Sequence record: PQ850611.1
Source of the DNA: Escherichia phage JohannBuxtorf_Bas84
DNA length: 44,189 nt
Strand: one strand, 5' to 3'
The notes below the pieces were generated by a model. That model saw only the letters and a program-made list of their open reading frames with translations, was not told the DNA's origin and did not search any database. Shown here piece after piece: positions 1,948 through 25,998 of this stretch. A program made the translations under genes and the position numbers. Position 1 is the first letter of the stretch, and each line of letters begins with the position of its first letter.

Positions 1948-3468
1948 ATGACCGTTAACGTTGACAACCAGCACCCGCTCTATGCGCGCATTGCGCCAGA
2001 GTGGAAGATGATCCGCGATTGTGTAGCAGGGGAGCGCGCCGTGAAGGCGTGCGGCCCTTTGTACCTGCCTCATCCCGCCAGTGGCGACAATACTGACCCG
2101 AAAGCACGGGCGCGGTATAAGGCGTACAAGCAACGCGCGGTATTCCTGAACGCCACCGCCCGCACACTAAACGCGCTGTTAGGCGTCGCCTTTGCAAAAC
2201 CTGTAAGTCTGGACCTTTCCGGGGCGATGGCTGACCTGATTGACGACGTAGACGGCAGCGGTATGCCATTGCCGCAACTTCTGCGCGGTGCTATGTCGGA
2301 AGTTCTGCAATCGGGACGCGCGGGCTTTATGGTGGATTACGACCGCCAGGCTAACTTTGATGAACTGGGTAACGTAGTGCCACAGACAGCCGCCGAGATG
2401 GCGGCACACCGACCGCTTATCCGCCTGTATACGGCAGAGCAGATCATCAACTGGCGGCAGACCCACGGCGTCGATACGCTAATTGTGCTGAAGGAAACGG
2501 ACGAAATCAGCACCGAAGACCCGGACGATTTCGCAAACCACGAAGTAACAATCTGGACCGAGCTTCGCATGATTGACGGCAAGGCACACGCCCGCCGCTG
2601 GTTTTACAACGCGGACACGTCCGAAGTGAAGATGGACTTGCCGCGAGGCTTCACCAGAACCGATCTTGTGCCGTTGGTGGATGCTTCCGGTAATGCGCTT
2701 ACGCAACTACCGTTTTGCTGGTGTGGCGCGGTGGACAACAACGCAACGCCTGACGCCGCTCCGCTGGCGGATATCGCATCCATCAACATTAAGCACTACA
2801 ACGCCGAAGCGGACGTCGCCGAGATTGCGCACATCGTGGGGCAACCTACCCTGGTGGCAACTGGCTTGACTCAATCATGGGCTGACAAGAACCTGAAGGG
2901 CGGCATCGCGCTCGGAGCGACTAAGGGCGTTATTCTGGGTCAGAACATGGACGCTAAACTGATTCAGGCCGAGGAGCGCAACTTGTCTGTTGCGCTGTGT
3001 GAGCGACGCGAATTGCAAATGGCTAAACTAGGCGCGGCCCTGGTTGAGAAGGGGACTGCACCTAAGACGGCAACGGAAGCGGCCTACGATGCGCAGACTG
3101 ATAACAGTATCCTGTCGCTTATTGCTGGTAACGTTGAGAAGGCTTTCAACCGCGCGCTGCAAATCGTCCAACTCTTCACCGGTGACACCGCCGACCAGCG
3201 TGTGACGCTGAATAAGTTCTACACCGAGATCACGGTTGATGCGCAGCTTATGACCGCGATGATGTCGGGTGTGCAGACTGGCACGGTCCGCCTGGCTGAT
3301 TTCATCAAGTGGATGATGGCGCAGGGCGTCATCGACGACTCGCAAACCGTCGAGCAGGTGGAAGACGAATTGCGAAATCAGAATCCATTGCCTCAAATGT
3401 CCCCCGATGCGGTAGAATCTACCGAAGAAGACCCGGACAAGGTAGCGGACAATGGCGAAGACAATTAA
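1948..3468 (+). CDS. portal protein
   Basis: 506 aa ORF directly after large terminase with RBS AGGAA; acidic C-terminus; synteny. Confidence 0.75.
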   Translation: MTVNVDNQHPLYARIAPEWKMIRDCVAGERAVKACGPLYLPHPASGDNTDPKARARYKAYKQRAVFLNATARTLNALLGVAFAKPVSLDLSGAMADLIDDVDGSGMPLPQLLRGAMSEVLQSGRAGFMVDYDRQANFDELGNVVPQTAAEMAAHRPLIRLYTAEQIINWRQTHGVDTLIVLKETDEISTEDPDDFANHEVTIWTELRMIDGKAHARRWFYNADTSEVKMDLPRGFTRTDLVPLVDASGNALTQLPFCWCGAVDNNATPDAAPLADIASINIKHYNAEADVAEIAHIVGQPTLVATGLTQSWADKNLKGGIALGATKGVILGQNMDAKLIQAEERNLSVALCERRELQMAKLGAALVEKGTAPKTATEAAYDAQTDNSILSLIAGNVEKAFNRALQIVQLFTGDTADQRVTLNKFYTEITVDAQLMTAMMSGVQTGTVRLADFIKWMMAQGVIDDSQTVEQVEDELRNQNPLPQMSPDAVESTEEDPDKVADNGEDN

Positions 3469-4555
3469 TCAACATTTGGCGGATCGAATGATCCGCCGTC
3501 ACATCTTCACCCAGCGCCTGAGCAATGATCAGGCGCGGAGGGTGCTGGCTATGTGGGAGAAGTTCCGGCCCGCTTTACTGGGTAAGCTGACCGAGTTACT
3601 TGATGGCAAAAAGTCCATGAGCAACAAGGCACTTACCACACTATTAACGCAACTCGACAAGACCGTCAAAACGGAACTGCGCGCCGAGTTTAAGGCGCTG
3701 GCTGAAAGCCTTCAGGAGTTCGCCGACACTGAGGCTGATTATCTCGCCGACACATTAACGGCAGCGATCCAGCCCGCGGTCGCCGTACCGGCTGTCGAGG
3801 TTGTGGGTGTTGTTACCGGCGCGCAGATTGCCGCGACGGCAATGAAAAACCCGTTCCAGGGTAATACGCTGATGCAATGGCCTGATTCACTTTCCGAGTG
3901 GACCAGAACGCAGATCGGCAATCAGGTGCGCGCCGGATTCATCCAGGGCAAGCCAACGATGGAAATTATCGCGGACGTGAGGCGCGCGCTCGGCGGTCGT
4001 AGTGCGCAAGCAATCTCAAGCGTCGTTAAGTCCGCGGTCAACCACTATGCGGCGACCGCCCGCGAATTAATGGTGAAAGCTAATGACGATATTCTCGAAG
4101 GTCGCCAATGGTTGGCTACATTGGACACGCATACTTCTCCCATGTGCCAGCTACGCGATCGCCTGTTTTATCCGGTTGATGTTACTCCCGACACCAAAGG
4201 CAAGCGCGGCGGAAAAGTGGTGGCGGGATCACAATATGGCGCTGGTCCGGGCAAGCTGCATTATTGCTGCCGTTCGACGGAGACGTGGAAAGTCAAAGGC
4301 ATGGAAGATTGGCCCAGTGGTAAGCGTCCGGCACTGAAGGCTGACGCAGGCAGATTGCTGAGTGAGCAGGTCGACGCGCAGACTGATTTCTTCTCCTGGG
4401 TGCAGCGCCAGCCGCGCCATATTCTGGAGGAATTATATGGGGTGCAACGCGCCGACCAGATTATGCGCGGCGTGAAAGTGCCGAAGATGTTCACCGATAC
4501 GGGCGAACTAATGACTATTGCACAGCTTAAAAACCGGGGGTTATGGCGTGATTAA
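3452..4555 (+). CDS. head morphogenesis protein (Mu gpF / SPP1 gp7-like)
   Basis: 367 aa; segment QWLATLDTHTSPMCQLRDRLF resembles the conserved core of Mu F-like minor head proteins; follows portal. Confidence 0.7.
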   Translation: MAKTINQHLADRMIRRHIFTQRLSNDQARRVLAMWEKFRPALLGKLTELLDGKKSMSNKALTTLLTQLDKTVKTELRAEFKALAESLQEFADTEADYLADTLTAAIQPAVAVPAVEVVGVVTGAQIAATAMKNPFQGNTLMQWPDSLSEWTRTQIGNQVRAGFIQGKPTMEIIADVRRALGGRSAQAISSVVKSAVNHYAATARELMVKANDDILEGRQWLATLDTHTSPMCQLRDRLFYPVDVTPDTKGKRGGKVVAGSQYGAGPGKLHYCCRSTETWKVKGMEDWPSGKRPALKADAGRLLSEQVDAQTDFFSWVQRQPRHILEELYGVQRADQIMRGVKVPKMFTDTGELMTIAQLKNRGLWRD

Positions 4556-4877
4556 GTATGCAGCGATCGGGCTGGTAATAGGCCTGGCGGTTGGGTTCTG
4601 GCTAGGTGACTCCTATCGCGCTGGCGTAGTGGCGGAGGCGGCGCGAGAAGCGCAAGCAAAAGCCCAACGGCAGCAAACTAAAGTTATTGAGCGCTCCGTG
4701 CAGGCTGAACAGGCCCGCGACGTAGAATACCGGACTATCACGAAAGAGGTTGTTAAATATGTTACGCGCCCTAACCGCCCTGATTGTAGTTTTGATGTTG
4801 AGCGCGTGCGGATCAAGCAACGTGCCGTTGATGCCGCTAACGGAGTCGGCACTGCGACCGCCGTGCAAGTTCGATAA
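4548..4877 (+). CDS. putative i-spanin (Rz-like), start uncertain (GTG 4548 or TTG 4518)
   Basis: N-terminal hydrophobic helix IKYAAIGLVIGLAVGFWLG followed by charged, Ala/Gln/Arg-rich helical region; a lipoprotein ORF is embedded/overlapping in the +1 frame. Confidence 0.4.
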   Translation: MIKYAAIGLVIGLAVGFWLGDSYRAGVVAEAAREAQAKAQRQQTKVIERSVQAEQARDVEYRTITKEVVKYVTRPNRPDCSFDVERVRIKQRAVDAANGVGTATAVQVR

Positions 4878-4989
4878 CCCGTCCGCAGACCCCGACGAGG
4901 ATTTGATGATTGACGTGAAAAATATGGAATGCGGGGCGAAGCTGAGGGCGCAGGTCCTGGAGTTGCAGCAAATAATTCGGGGGCCGTAA
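4750..4989 (+). CDS. putative o-spanin (Rz1-like lipoprotein) overlapping the i-spanin ORF in another frame
   Basis: signal peptide with lipobox LSAC (MLRALTALIVVLMLSACGSS), Pro-rich mature part; overlapped architecture typical of Rz/Rz1. Confidence 0.4.
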   Translation: MLNMLRALTALIVVLMLSACGSSNVPLMPLTESALRPPCKFDNPSADPDEDLMIDVKNMECGAKLRAQVLELQQIIRGP

Positions 4990-5001
4990 TGGCCCCCTTT
5001 T
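4979..5001. terminator. bidirectional intrinsic terminator between convergent genes
   Basis: perfect GC stem gggggcc/ggccccc with 5-nt loop, followed by TTTT on plus strand and A/T-rich run on minus strand; sits between stop of 4750-4989 and stop of 5004-5768. Confidence 0.7.
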
Positions 5002-5003
5002 CG

Positions 5004-5768
5004 TTAGCGCGGAATACCGCAAATCTCGTTTAACGTCTTCACGTCCAGCGCCACCGCCGTGGACTTCGGCTTGTCCGGGTAAGGAATGAACTGTTCCACT
5101 TCAGGCCACGCCTTGATCAGCTTCTTATCTGTATTGTGCATATCCAGCACGCCGGTAACGGTTAGTTTGAACGCGTCATACTTCGCGCGCAATTCGCGGC
5201 GGGCCTTGTCGTTACGGTCCAGGCGCTTGCAGAAATCATGGTCCGCCGGGTAGTCTGCGCGATCGCGAGGGAGATATATCGGCAGCGCTTTCCCATCCTC
5301 GTCCACTTCACATACTGAGGCCAGCATAACTTCCTCATACCCTGGGACTATATCGCCGAGGTCAGGCGCGAGCTTGTTCATGTATTTGATGTCCCAGTAT
5401 CCGCGACGTACGCGGTTTTGTCGCCCGTCGCCGCTCAATGACAAGGTGCGAACATTGCCGCCTGCGTTTATTTCGAAAGAGGCGTCGTAAACGCTGCCAA
5501 TACCTTTCGGGCGGTCGGTGTTATAGCTATACGTCGCCTTGTTGGTGTAGACGCTGACGCCGTACATCTGCGACTGGTCGCCGCGGATTAACTGGATATG
5601 CTCGCGTAGCGCGGCGAATGTGCGAATGCCTTCCGGCATACAGTCCAGCGTAATGGCGTACGCCAGGTCGCGCGAGTCCATCATGATGGATTTTGCTTCG
5701 GTCGCGATTTCATGGTCGCGCAGGATGTTAGCCAGAATCTGGTTTTTAATGTCTTTCGTCAGTCTCAT
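5004..5768 (-). CDS. hypothetical protein (minus-strand insert in head module)
   Basis: 254 aa from internal ATG (MRLTKDIK...) with RBS GAGGA 8 nt upstream; opposite orientation to flanking structural genes; own upstream motif pair and downstream terminator. Confidence 0.6.
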   Translation of the reverse strand: MRLTKDIKNQILANILRDHEIATEAKSIMMDSRDLAYAITLDCMPEGIRTFAALREHIQLIRGDQSQMYGVSVYTNKATYSYNTDRPKGIGSVYDASFEINAGGNVRTLSLSGDGRQNRVRRGYWDIKYMNKLAPDLGDIVPGYEEVMLASVCEVDEDGKALPIYLPRDRADYPADHDFCKRLDRNDKARRELRAKYDAFKLTVTGVLDMHNTDKKLIKAWPEVEQFIPYPDKPKSTAVALDVKTLNEICGIPR

Positions 5769-5790
5769 TTGTGTGTCCTCGTTGTTGGTG

Positions 5791-5814
5791 TGCAACCAAT
5801 ATAGTGCAACCAAT
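5791..5814. promoter_or_regulatory. tandem TGCAACCAAT motif pair in divergent intergenic region
   Basis: TGCAACCAAT at 5791-5800 and 5805-5814 (14-bp period) between divergent genes 5004-5768 (-) and 5918-6619 (+). Confidence 0.45.
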
Positions 5815-5917
5815 ACGAGGATTGCAAGCGAATTTTGCGATTATTTTTATCGCTGATAATATTAGAGGCGTGAAGTCGAGCGGGTGGCCTGCTCTGCCAC
5901 AATCCCAGGGGGATAGC

Positions 5918-6619
5918 ATGAAACTTACTAAAGCAGAATATGACGCGTTGCCGGAAGGTATGAAGGCGCTTTTTGTTGCCGATGGTGACGGGTATAAGTC
6001 AACATTCATGACCGCCGAAGAGGTACAGGCGGAAATTAAGGGTCTGAAAGACAACAACGCGAAGCTGGTGAGCGAGAAGAAAGCAGAAGCTGAACGTCGC
6101 GCCGAAGCCGAGCGCCTTGCGAAAGAGAAAGAGGAAGCCGCCGCGCGCAAAAATGGCGACCTCGAAGCGATCGACAAGTCCTGGAAAGATAAGTTTGCGA
6201 AACACGAAGCAGACACAGCGGGAAAAATCGAAGCCTACCGCAAGCAGATCCACGATCTAACCATCGGCAGCGCTGCCAAAGACCTGGCATCGAAGCTATT
6301 CGGTAAGAATGCCGGCATCATGCAACGCCACGTAATGGACCGTCTGACGCTGGAAGACGGCGAAGACGGCAGCTTGAAAGTGCGTGTCTTGCAGGATGGC
6401 AAACCGTCCGCGCTGACTATGGAAGAGTTAGAAAAAGAGTTCCGTAATAACGCCGATTTTGCATCCGTCCTGGCTGGCACGCCAGCCGGTGGCGCGCCTA
6501 GCAAACCGACGCAGGTTGTCGAAGATGTGAAGTCTAAAATTACGATGGGCCATAGCTTCGGTATCACCGATCTCACCAAACAGGCCGGTGAAATCATCGC
6601 TAAAATGGGTGACGAGTAA
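5918..6619 (+). CDS. putative scaffolding protein
   Basis: 233 aa from ATG with RBS AGGGGGA; highly charged, coiled-coil-like sequence (KKAEAERRAEAERLAKEKEEAAARK); immediately upstream of major capsid gene. Confidence 0.55.
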   Translation: MKLTKAEYDALPEGMKALFVADGDGYKSTFMTAEEVQAEIKGLKDNNAKLVSEKKAEAERRAEAERLAKEKEEAAARKNGDLEAIDKSWKDKFAKHEADTAGKIEAYRKQIHDLTIGSAAKDLASKLFGKNAGIMQRHVMDRLTLEDGEDGSLKVRVLQDGKPSALTMEELEKEFRNNADFASVLAGTPAGGAPSKPTQVVEDVKSKITMGHSFGITDLTKQAGEIIAKMGDE

Positions 6620-6716
6620 GCAGATTGCCCGCGAAAGCGGGCAATTTTGCGAGCGCGTAAATCTAAGGTAACATTAACGTCACTGGGCGAATGCTCACAA
6701 CTCAAAGGATTTCGAT

Positions 6717-7811
6717 ATGTCTTTAACAGTGTTCCAGCGTAAACTCGTTACCGCGGTTACGCAAATGATCCCCGACAACCTGAACGTTTTCAACGCCGCC
6801 GCCAATGGCGCTGTTGTTCTCGGTACTGGTGAAGTGCTGAATGACGTTATTGAGAAAATGTCCGTAGGCTTGATCGCCAACCTCGTTACCGACCGTAACG
6901 CCTACGCCCCCGTCGGCACTCCGGCGACCGCGAAAGTGCTGGCGCGTATGCTAACCAACTCGGTTAACCTTTCCGCAAAAGTGGGTCCGGTAGCAATCAC
7001 TAAGGCTATGATGGCTAAGATCGAAACCAACGTTAACAGCGTTGCGGCTGAGATTGCGGCACAGGCTACTCAAGCGATTATGCTGCACTACCTGAAAGCT
7101 GGTATCGGCGCAAGTAAAGCGGCGATCGAAAGCAACGCAGCGGCAAAATACACCCAACCGGCGCGCGTTGACGGCGTTGGCGGTCGTACCTTCCCGACCC
7201 TGGCAGACTTCCCGCTGGCGGCTTCTAAGTTCGGCGATCAGGCGTCTTTGATTAAGTCCTGGTTTATGGACGGCGTTACCTGGGCAAACTTCATTGCGTA
7301 CCAGGCACTCCCTTCCGCTGAACAGGTATTCGCAATTGGCGATCTCCAGGTAATGGGTGATGGCCTGGGCCGTCGCTTCATTATCTCCGATGCCGCTGCC
7401 GATGCTATGGGCGCGGGTAACATGCTGGGTCTGGTCCCTGGCGCGGTTGCAGTTACCACCAACGGCCTCGATATGCTGGCGCAGGAGAAAGGCGGTAACG
7501 AGAACATCGAACGCTGGTGGCAGGGTGAGTTCGACTTCAACGTGGCTGTTAAAGGCTACCGTCTGAAGGCGTCCGCTCGTACCCCGATCGAAGGTGTGCG
7601 CTCGTTCAAACTGGACGATATTACCACTTCCGCTAACTGGGAGCTGGACCAGGGCCAGGTAGACAACGCACCGGCAACCGTTCAGGATGTTGGCGGCGAT
7701 AGCGATACTAAAGGCCGTCGTAAGACCCAGGCCGCACAGGCAGTGCCTACCCGTCACATCAAGGAAACCGCTGGCGTACTGGTTACGCTGACTGCGACCA
7801 CCGCGTCTTAA
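6717..7811 (+). CDS. major capsid protein
   Basis: 364 aa, RBS AAGGA; position after scaffold; followed by a strong intrinsic terminator, typical of highly expressed capsid genes. Confidence 0.75.
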   Translation: MSLTVFQRKLVTAVTQMIPDNLNVFNAAANGAVVLGTGEVLNDVIEKMSVGLIANLVTDRNAYAPVGTPATAKVLARMLTNSVNLSAKVGPVAITKAMMAKIETNVNSVAAEIAAQATQAIMLHYLKAGIGASKAAIESNAAAKYTQPARVDGVGGRTFPTLADFPLAASKFGDQASLIKSWFMDGVTWANFIAYQALPSAEQVFAIGDLQVMGDGLGRRFIISDAAADAMGAGNMLGLVPGAVAVTTNGLDMLAQEKGGNENIERWWQGEFDFNVAVKGYRLKASARTPIEGVRSFKLDDITTSANWELDQGQVDNAPATVQDVGGDSDTKGRRKTQAAQAVPTRHIKETAGVLVTLTATTAS

Positions 7812-25314: not shown

Positions 25315-25532
25315 TTTAATTCCGCCATTAAATTTTCACGTACAATACGGGCTGAGAATGCGTCGCACACAAGATGGCAACGCGCCGTCATAACAAGCCA
25401 GCCAGTTAGGTCAAGGCCCAGCAATTGATGAGGTTGGCTTGCGCGCCTTACTTTATTTCCAGGGAAAACCTGGTAGCGTTTAATTATTTCATCCACGACG
25501 CGAGGACTTCGATCGAAGACTAAGATATTCAT
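25311..25532 (-). CDS. small hypothetical protein
   Basis: 73 aa; RBS GAAGGTG; stop overlaps HAD start (ATGA); fills gap between Dam and HAD genes; overlaps Dam 3' end by ~44 nt so uncertain. Confidence 0.35.
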   Translation of the reverse strand: MNILVFDRSPRVVDEIIKRYQVFPGNKVRRASQPHQLLGLDLTGWLVMTARCHLVCDAFSARIVRENLMAELK

Positions 25533-25998
25533 TTAATTCACCTTCGCTCATTATTTCTATTTGTGCGCTGCCGTTTGGCGGCACTTCTTCAAAGATTATC
25601 AATTGCTGGCACTTGTTGTTACTCGGCCCGACGTTACCGGTGACGGCGTGTATAAACCGGATCCGCCAGTCCAGCAAAATAATCAGGTTGGCGGTTTGCC
25701 TTGCCAGTTTGGCCCACTTCGTGGTCGTATCCTGGTTGAGCAACATTACCGTCTTACGCCCCTGCGATGCGCAAGTCACCCACGGCAGCGGGTCGGAATA
25801 CGGCGGATTGCACCACTTCCACCCGGTTAACTCTGACCAGTCAGCATCAAGTGCGCTGTGCTCTTTCGTGAAGTAGCGCGGTAATAGATGGTTGTGGTCG
25901 CTCGCCGCCATGTCGTAGCGGAATTTAAACGCCTTGCGCAGTGGCTTAAATAAAGCGGGCGGCGTTCGCCAGCTATCCTTCTGCTCATTCTCCGTCAT
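25489..25998 (-). CDS. DNA N6-adenine methyltransferase (phage Dam family)
   Basis: 169 aa; motifs WRTPPALF, DMAAS and catalytic NPPYS characteristic of phage Dam-type N6-adenine MTases. Confidence 0.8.
   Translation of the reverse strand: MTENEQKDSWRTPPALFKPLRKAFKFRYDMAASDHNHLLPRYFTKEHSALDADWSELTGWKWCNPPYSDPLPWVTCASQGRKTVMLLNQDTTTKWAKLARQTANLIILLDWRIRFIHAVTGNVGPSNNKCQQLIIFEEVPPNGSAQIEIMSEGELNEYLSLRSKSSRRG

Follow-up and report, generated by a model that had tools for sequence, protein, structure and literature searches.

A stretch of 44,189 nucleotides from Escherichia phage JohannBuxtorf_Bas84 (sequence record PQ850611.1; the whole stretch is called the window here) carries, at positions 5004 to 5768 of the minus strand, a gene that we identify as nmad5. 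The source genome is a Dhillonvirus (an HK578-like coliphage), and in the region from 4000 to 7000 more than 130 deposited phages are approximately 94% identical to it. On one side of nmad5 lie, on the plus strand, a Mu-F-like head morphogenesis gene (3452-4555) and the Rz/Rz1 spanin genes (approximately 4548-4989), and on the other side lie the scaffold gene (5918-6619) and then the major capsid gene (6717-7811); the names of these flanking genes are taken over from the annotation of relatives. The product of nmad5 is a member of the Nmad5 protein family, for which the label of a modification enzyme is not supported in Dhillonviruses. The gene is a dispensable non-structural accessory gene, and we consider it on balance probable that this conserved gene encodes a non-catalytic, replication-associated host-interaction protein that is read by the defence system Tmn. 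The features of the locus are as follows.

5004 to 5768, minus strand: nmad5 coding sequence, 254 amino acids (aa), PF18757; full-length Pfam match, and phrog_1965
5649 to 5768, minus strand: residues 1-40, conserved N-terminal helices (RLTxxI[KR]xxIxxN); 4 of 40 positions variable in the genus, predicted local distance difference test score (pLDDT) 96-98
5229 to 5648, minus strand: residues 41-180, variable region, mostly a beta-rich insert of lineage-specific length; 56 of 140 positions variable
5007 to 5228, minus strand: residues 181-254, conserved helical core at the C-terminus, which contains TxxKLxxxWPE and the terminal motif LNxxCG[IL]P, as seen in a 56-sequence alignment
5121 to 5123, minus strand: codon of K216 (AAG), in the context HNTDKKLIKAW
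5776 to 5780, minus strand: ribosome-binding site (RBS) GAGGA, 7 nt upstream of the ATG
5798 to 5827, minus strand: candidate sigma-70-like promoter, TTGCAA-18 nt-TATATT, 9 of 12 consensus matches
5791 to 5814, plus strand: tandem TGCAACCAAT pair, exact copies at 5791-5800 and 5805-5814
5784 to 5800, minus strand: 17-nt element ATTGGTTGCACACCAAC, a near-palindrome directly 5' of the RBS that overlaps motif copy 1
4979 to 4997, both strands: GC-rich hairpin, candidate bidirectional terminator for the convergent Rz1 and nmad5 genes, -17.1 kcal/mol
5769 to 5917: divergent intergenic region of 149 bp, GC 0.477, the site of cargo genes in relatives

The coding sequence runs from the ATG at 5768-5766 to the TAA at 5006-5004. 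An alternative TTG start at 5813, which a mechanically called open reading frame (ORF) of 269 aa would use, was rejected in favour of the ATG at 5768, because the N-terminus M-R-L-T is conserved throughout the family (R2 in 55 of 56 sequences) and because the GAGGA RBS at 5780-5776, read from the sequence, lies 7 nt 5' of this ATG. The leader aacaacGAGGAcacacaaATG is kept in all Dhillonvirus loci, including those that bear cargo genes. The full-length Pfam match and a ratio of nonsynonymous to synonymous substitution rates (dN/dS) of 0.12 among 12 relatives mark nmad5 as a real gene, and the 254-aa minus-strand ORF with an RBS between the head-morphogenesis/spanin and scaffold genes, as described in an earlier note on this DNA, is borne out.

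The protein matches the Pfam family Nmad5 (PF18757) with an E value of 1.4e-57 and a score of 195.5 bits against a cut-off of 27, with residues 1-253 aligned to positions 1-206 of the 206-position model, and belongs to this family; it also matches PHROG 1965, a family of unknown function. The earlier note, which had recognised no motif in the protein, is superseded on this point. The protein is 85-96% identical to its counterparts in other Dhillonviruses and at most approximately 96% identical to any database protein, and some of the relatives' proteins, for example those of BF9, SECphi18 and UDS3lw, already bear the Nmad5 name. A HMMER scan of 1.84 billion cluster representatives returned 815 family members, counted as clusters at 50% identity. 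All motifs of the family are present here: the N-terminal RLTxxI[KR], the central G...G hairpin, TxxKLxxxWPE and the C-terminal LNxxxG[LI]P. Typical members are stand-alone proteins of approximately 200 aa, and the length differs between lineages in the 56-sequence alignment; the Dhillonvirus protein is approximately 50 aa longer than these because its central beta insert is larger. In most lineages, nmad5 is co-directional with replication genes, whereas the Dhillonvirus copy is antisense inside a structural operon. A divergent sub-family, the members of which end in ...KATGGLVAVAA and lack LNxxxGLP, was observed in IMG/VR contigs of 105-215 kb (L030-L034, L041 and L043), and two of its copies (L031 and L032) are present in a single 215-kb contig. 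The family is said to have been defined computationally by Iyer et al. in 2013, and its name reportedly comes from a neighbourhood with modification genes. Sequence-level membership of the present protein stands, because gene neighbourhood is a contextual feature and not a sequence criterion.

As judged from the alignment and a structural model, Nmad5 has no known fold and no conserved set of catalytic residues. The residues that are invariant or near-invariant in the 56 diverse sequences (R2, G104, G113, T213, L217, W221, P222, P229, L246, N247 and G251) are all present here and are mainly structural ones (G, P, W and L), to which R2, T213 and N247 are added; the conserved polar positions are limited to R2, K/R8, T/S213, D/E223, T/S237 and N247, and the alignment contains no conserved His or Cys. 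An AlphaFold2 model built from this alignment (pLDDT 90.2, predicted template modelling score 0.83) was used in place of an earlier model from a shallow alignment of nine sequences (pLDDT 57). In the predicted fold, residues 5-62 and 178-250 form a long helical bundle into which a beta-rich insert (residues 79-173) is set, with modelled strands at residues 79-110 and 171-173. A Foldseek search of the PDB gave no match below E = 1, the best ones being generic helical, and in the viral structure library BFVD all significant matches were phage proteins that are either named Nmad5 or have no functional name. Sequence searches of the PDB with the single protein and with the 56-sequence profile gave nothing meaningful, scans of the protein with PADLOC (0 matches) and NCBIfam were empty, and the papers searched that mention Nmad5 report no biochemical activity for it. 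The protein has a net charge of 0 and a pI of 6.9, which support neither a DNA mimic nor a classical DNA-binding protein.

The gene evolves under constraint but faster than its surroundings. Among 12 Dhillonviruses, nmad5 has a dN of 0.058 and a dN/dS of 0.118, as against a dN of 0.007-0.014 and a dN/dS of 0.02-0.06 for the terminase, portal, Mu-F, scaffold and capsid genes, and its dN is thus 4-8 times that of the flanking head genes. Variable positions number 56 of 140 in residues 41-180 versus 11 of 114 in both termini; the protein therefore evolves fast, mainly in its central insert.

The position and orientation of nmad5 are conserved across the genus. A comparison of presence and absence among relatives, as proposed in the earlier note, found nmad5 in 149 of the 158 phage records that have the neighbouring scaffold and capsid genes in common, in the same position and orientation in those examined, and a metagenomic relative with an Nmad5 of only 42% identity keeps the antisense placement between the Mu-F/spanin and scaffold/capsid genes. 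The GC content of nmad5 (0.549) is close to the genome mean (0.545) and within the range of the flanking genes (0.527-0.566), with no compositional sign of a recent horizontal acquisition. Its near-universal presence, the placement kept at 42% identity and the genome-like GC content together indicate that nmad5 is a long-standing resident rather than a recent moron, and the moron-like insertion suggested in the earlier note is not upheld. The gene resembles lambdoid morons in that it looks like a compact independent unit within a late operon, with promoter-like sequence at one end and a candidate terminator hairpin at the other, and in that its locus collects variable genes in relatives, and it looks like a small antisense transcription unit between the spanins and the scaffold gene; it differs from them in being near-universal in the genus, genome-like in composition and syntenic in distant relatives. 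Of the features that define morons, neither variable presence (one natural deletion among these phages) nor a deviating base composition was found, and for a promoter and terminator of its own there are a 9/12 sigma-70-like match at chance level and a strong hairpin with a weak minus-strand U-run. Dhillonviruses are known as virulent phages, and there is therefore no lysogenic-conversion logic for nmad5.

Despite this conservation, nmad5 is dispensable. Escherichia phage Teewinot (NC_073053.1; L005, approximately 5060-5253) has a natural deletion of approximately 670 bp, after which only the first 98 bp of nmad5 remain, and engineered removal of the gene leaves a viable phage (PMC11846954). 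In the annotation, the Teewinot remnant is part of a fused 'hypothetical protein' extending into the scaffold gene. The accessory function proposed in the earlier note is supported by both deletions. Of the two marks that the note had set against such a function, the first, a conserved orientation in relatives, is seen in nearly all of them, but the second, a structural product, is not, as the protein is non-structural.

The link to defence that the earlier note had suspected comes from genetics already published. Yamashita et al. (2025, Commun Biol, PMC11846954) reported that escapers of two Dhillonviruses on E. coli expressing Tmn share one change in nmad5, which is K216E in phiSMA8 (254-aa annotation) and K296E in phiSMS22 (longer annotation). 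Reverting K216E restored sensitivity to Tmn and K216E alone conferred resistance, the deletion of nmad5 gave no escape, and attempts to clone the wild-type gene failed, apparently through its toxicity; nmad5 was called a 'DNA modification enzyme' in that study, with reference to a computational paper of 2013 (PMC11846954). In the window, gene and locus ('located near the capsid gene') are the same as in those two phages; the gene encodes 254 aa as in phiSMA8, and has an identical TDKKLIKAWPE motif with K216 in the identical context HNTDKKLIKAW; it comes from a different isolate, with differences mainly in residues 41-180. The nmad5 studied here is expected to share the properties of being deletable, being toxic to clone and giving Tmn escape when K216 is changed to E. 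K216 is the consensus K of TxxKLxxxWPE, the most conserved motif of the family.

A second phage protein offers a functional analogy. T2 RIIB, an early, replisome-associated protein, directly activates Tmn, and its variant RIIB-D219S binds Tmn without activating it (bioRxiv 2026, PMC13001434). Like RIIB, Nmad5 is a non-structural phage protein in which a single-residue change abolishes Tmn defence, and where RIIB is associated with the replisome and has a binding-competent, non-activating variant, Nmad5 homologues neighbour replication genes. The two proteins have no relation in sequence or fold; null mutants of RIIB escape Tmn but the nmad5 deletion does not, and direct Tmn binding is known for RIIB, whereas a contact between Nmad5 and Tmn is our proposal.

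Three other identifications were considered and rejected. Nmad5 is not Ksap1, the Dhillonvirus trigger of KpAvs2, which has 74 aa and lies at another locus; it is not the RAZR trigger in SECphi18, which is the portal protein; and the anti-Tmn gene is not part of the nmad5 islet, since this gene is ORF35 and nmad5 is CDS6, so that the two are clearly not adjacent. In SECphi18, Ksap1 sits with a gene for a methyltransferase on one side and one for a phosphatase on the other (PMC11564622). The window carries a Dam-type N6-adenine methyltransferase gene (25489-25998, minus strand) and a gene for a 380-aa metallophosphatase (42722-43864, plus strand), the latter labelled 'HTH luxR-type' in BF9.

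The genome context bears directly on the supposed modification activity. The non-structural genes scanned here include those for Dam, DUF2800, an Enc34-type single-stranded DNA-binding protein, AAA_25, PolA, an SNF2 helicase and the metallophosphatase; among the window genes scanned, there is no hypermodification partner gene, be it for a pyrimidine hydroxymethylase, a 5-hydroxymethyldeoxyuridine (5-hmdU) kinase (HMUDK), aGPT-Pplase or ADDT. In the phenotyping of the BASEL collection, Dhillonviruses were sensitive to type I and type II restriction, unlike the hypermodified Queuovirinae (PMC8594841). They are also reported to be markedly resistant to the DNA intercalator daunorubicin, unlike related Drexlerviridae, with no gene linked to this trait (PMC13250531).

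To survey other lineages, ORF calls within 3.5 kb on either side of nmad5 were searched with Pfam at 38 non-redundant non-Dhillonvirus loci drawn from two sub-alignments. The neighbours were mainly replication or recombination genes, and the counts out of 38 loci were 8 each for PolA and Helicase_C, 6 for DUF2514 (spanin), 5 for thymidylate synthase or ThyX, 4 each for RNase_T, for DNA methylases and for RecT, Rad52 or YqaJ, 2 for HMUDK and 1 for ADDT. The association of PF18757 with modification genes is therefore absent from the window genes scanned and present in at most 3 of the 38 loci elsewhere. One lambdoid phage has its homologue between N and kil in the pL operon, with genes annotated as erf, ssb, exonuclease and anti-RecBCD genes downstream, and in another phage the homologue lies inside an AAA_25/DUF2800/Enc34/PolA replication module, the same as Dhillonviruses have. 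A hypermodification cassette around nmad5 was found in M6-like phages only. The protein of these Pseudomonas phages (Yuavirus) belongs to the same Pfam family and is 38-40% identical in its C-terminal 80 residues, and its gene stands beside genes for a 5-hmdU DNA kinase and for thymidylate-synthase-like, pyridoxal phosphate-dependent (PLP) and radical-SAM-type enzymes (PMC9476957), none of which was found in the window.

The intergenic region of 5769-5917 is read, from its sequence, as a shared divergent control region of nmad5 and the scaffold gene. The motif TGCAACCAAT occurs here as a tandem pair, and both copies read on the plus strand, toward the scaffold gene. The window contains 12 exact copies (at 5791, 5805, 21810, 24834, 24846, 26498, 26515, 36109, 39386, 39417, 40126 and 42550) at eight intergenic sites, often as tandem pairs, and with up to one mismatch there are 17 against 3.15 expected, a number reached in 0 of 100 shuffles. 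Most copies, read in the orientation of the motif, lie 16-104 nt 5' of a start codon and are followed by a (T)TACGAGGA-like sequence. Because it is enriched in the genome, TGCAACCAAT is a genome-wide motif and not one private to nmad5, and the pair, which the earlier note had assigned to this gene, points to the scaffold gene instead. It looks like a phage-specific promoter or operator; we met no description of it in the papers searched, although no search was aimed at it. In every Dhillonvirus locus examined, cargo loci included, the scaffold-proximal end of the antisense unit retains at least one of the two copies, and the pair is also kept in a distant relative. A 109-aa protein with a Sigma-70 region 4/HTH_23 domain (E 2e-6), encoded at 36308-36637 on the plus strand and divergent beside the motif copy at 36109, is a candidate for binding TGCAACCAAT.

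On the nmad5 side, the first TGCAACCAAT copy extends into the near-palindrome ATTGGTTGCACACCAAC. The identical 17-mer is present at 39417-39433 on the plus strand, directly 5' of the RBS of the gene at 39450-39929, which encodes an unannotated protein of 159 aa with no Pfam match. The presence of the same element before both RBSs suggests that nmad5 and the 159-aa gene may be co-regulated. The sigma-70-like match for nmad5 (5827-5798, minus strand: TTGCAA, 18 nt, TATATT) places its -10 hexamer between the two motif copies; this promoter candidate is weak by itself, because it is a single match in a 2-kb scan in which 1.3 are expected by chance. At the other end of the gene, both strands give a hairpin call at 4979-4997, with -17.1 kcal/mol on either and z scores of -2.9 and -3.2. 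The stop codon of the Rz1 o-spanin (4987-4989) lies in its loop and the stop codon of nmad5 lies 6 nt from its stem. The U-run is good on the plus strand (UUUUCGUU) and weak on the minus strand (GAAUUAUUUG). The shared bidirectional terminator proposed in the earlier note remains a candidate.

The same intergenic region is a hot spot for accessory genes. In other Dhillonviruses (L048, L054-L057, L060 and L062), one of four unrelated extra genes lies between the motif and nmad5 on the nmad5 strand, and each is followed by the short hairpin ggggcgaaagcccc and then by the nmad5 leader, which is conserved; the starts of the scaffold gene and of nmad5 are 326-743 bp apart in these relatives versus 150 bp in the window, which has the minimal version without cargo. 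The four cargo genes are as follows.

104 aa: phrog_24635, function unknown; approximately 61 Dhillonvirus records at 90% identity or more
135 aa: without a match in Pfam or PHROG; 7 Escherichia phage records, HK578 among them
53 aa: no annotation; locus L054
172 aa: beta-clamp-like; 16 records at 80% identity or more

The 172-aa cargo gene (L062 4831-5397, corresponding to 5929-6444 of Shigella phage EP23, JN984867.1) encodes a protein that weakly resembles the central domain of the beta-clamp DnaN (PF02767, E 7e-4, which is below the Pfam threshold; NDVRYYLNGV...ASDGHRL) and also matches phrog_947, 'DNA polymerase processivity factor'. Distant homologues are present in 232 other phage records, mainly from Salmonella, Klebsiella and other Escherichia phages. 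In some records, this cargo is labelled 'RusA-like resolvase'.

What does Nmad5 do in these phages? We infer that it would not be a DNA-modifying enzyme in this phage but more probably a binding or adaptor protein without catalytic activity that is expressed apart from the late head operon. It may act on the replication or recombination of phage DNA or on a target in the host, and either action would account for both the toxicity on cloning and the replication-module neighbours elsewhere. The constant part of its function would reside in the conserved helical core, that is, in the N-terminus and the TxxKLxxxWPE motif with K216, and the variable beta insert may tune specificity. By analogy with T2, Tmn would contact Nmad5 much as it contacts RIIB, and K216E may produce a variant that Tmn contacts without being activated, thereby blocking activation by a second trigger; such a decoy would reconcile escape by the point mutant with the lack of escape by deletion. 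The pattern of a constant core, a variable insert, replication neighbours, toxicity and a gain-of-function-like escape allele fits a non-catalytic adaptor best.

Several points weigh against this proposal. The timing of Nmad5 expression supposed above is deduced solely from the orientation of the gene and a consensus-level promoter match. The conserved R/K/T/E/N constellation could be a novel active site, and the protein, being neither basic nor acidic, offers no positive argument for DNA binding. The deletion result (PMC11846954) means that Nmad5 cannot be the sole trigger of Tmn, and the decoy explanation of K216E is ours and not that of the same study. Furthermore, the Pfam scan of the window took in the non-structural genes and some of the head genes rather than every ORF, and the neighbour survey rests on a crude ORF caller and 38 loci. 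A bolder version, which we regard as doubtful when taken as a whole, is that Nmad5 is the founding member of a new-fold family of replication-associated adaptors read directly by Tmn, with the N-terminus and TxxKLxxxWPE as the contact site and K216E as a decoy, and that the antisense islet serves host takeover or counter-defence, its cargo, including the beta-clamp-like fragment, being aimed at the host replisome or immunity.

Among the alternatives, the one that survives best, though we consider it unlikely, is that Nmad5 is a dedicated counter-defence protein against a nuclease or an immune system other than Tmn, that K216E broadens its range to Tmn and that the antisense unit is an anti-defence islet. 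Such a protein could be dispensable in the laboratory and lost naturally in one phage, as nmad5 is; a dN 4-8 times that of flanking genes and concentrated in one region, the accumulation of variable cargo genes at the locus and the position of the lambdoid homologue in the accessory pL region, near genes annotated as kil and anti-RecBCD genes, all accord with it, as does the gain-of-function genetics in which K216E escapes Tmn and the deletion does not. However, wild-type Nmad5 is not known to inhibit any defence system, and the overall dN/dS of 0.12 indicates purifying and not positive selection. The core of the family (815 representatives) stays conserved among phages that differ widely, as do their hosts, and this suggests a housekeeping-like conserved partner rather than a fast-changing immune target, and most lineages embed nmad5 co-directionally in replication operons.

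We find it more improbable still that Nmad5 belongs to a pathway for modifying DNA or nucleotides, as an enzyme or as an obligatory subunit, with Tmn sensing the modified DNA, which is the view taken in PMC11846954. The name of the family, given for a neighbourhood with modification genes, speaks for this view, as do the M6-like Yuaviruses, in which nmad5 stands beside a 5-hmdU DNA kinase and a thymidylate-synthase-like gene (PMC9476957), the minority of surveyed loci with HMUDK, ADDT, PALP or TS/ThyX neighbours, and the conserved polar cluster of R2, K/R8, T213, E223 and N247. However, Dam stands alone among the window genes scanned, with no hydroxymethylase, kinase, aGPT-Pplase or ADDT beside it, specific hypermodification neighbours occur at no more than 3 of 38 loci, and no enzyme fold was detected. 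Homologues are found between N and kil in lambdoid and Stx phages, and base hypermodification is not known for this group. Dhillonviruses are comparatively sensitive to restriction (PMC8594841), and the persistence of Tmn sensing after nmad5 deletion is hard to reconcile with the sensing of a modification made by Nmad5.

A role in head assembly, structure or morphogenesis, to which the conserved position between the head-morphogenesis and scaffold/capsid genes would point, is highly improbable and largely refuted, as nmad5 lies on the opposite strand and can be deleted without loss of viability, its homologues in most other lineages are in replication or early regions and not in structural modules, and the best PDB matches are generic helical ones with no structural-protein fold.

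The non-catalytic, replication-associated adaptor accordingly remains our preferred account of Dhillonvirus Nmad5. That nmad5 has a Pfam name and that a Dhillonvirus copy was studied genetically in 2025 is already known; the missing catalytic set and modification partners, the neighbour survey, the fast dN and the cargo genes are new here. The distinction matters because annotations and papers increasingly carry the label 'DNA modification enzyme', for a widespread phage family (approximately 815 clusters at 50% identity) with no solved structure and no assigned activity. The variable cargo slot beside nmad5 is a practical hunting ground for new host-takeover or anti-defence genes. If our proposal is true, K216 would be a second, independent handle on the recognition of phages by Tmn, and the finding would be of relevance to the engineering of therapeutic coliphages that evade Tmn.

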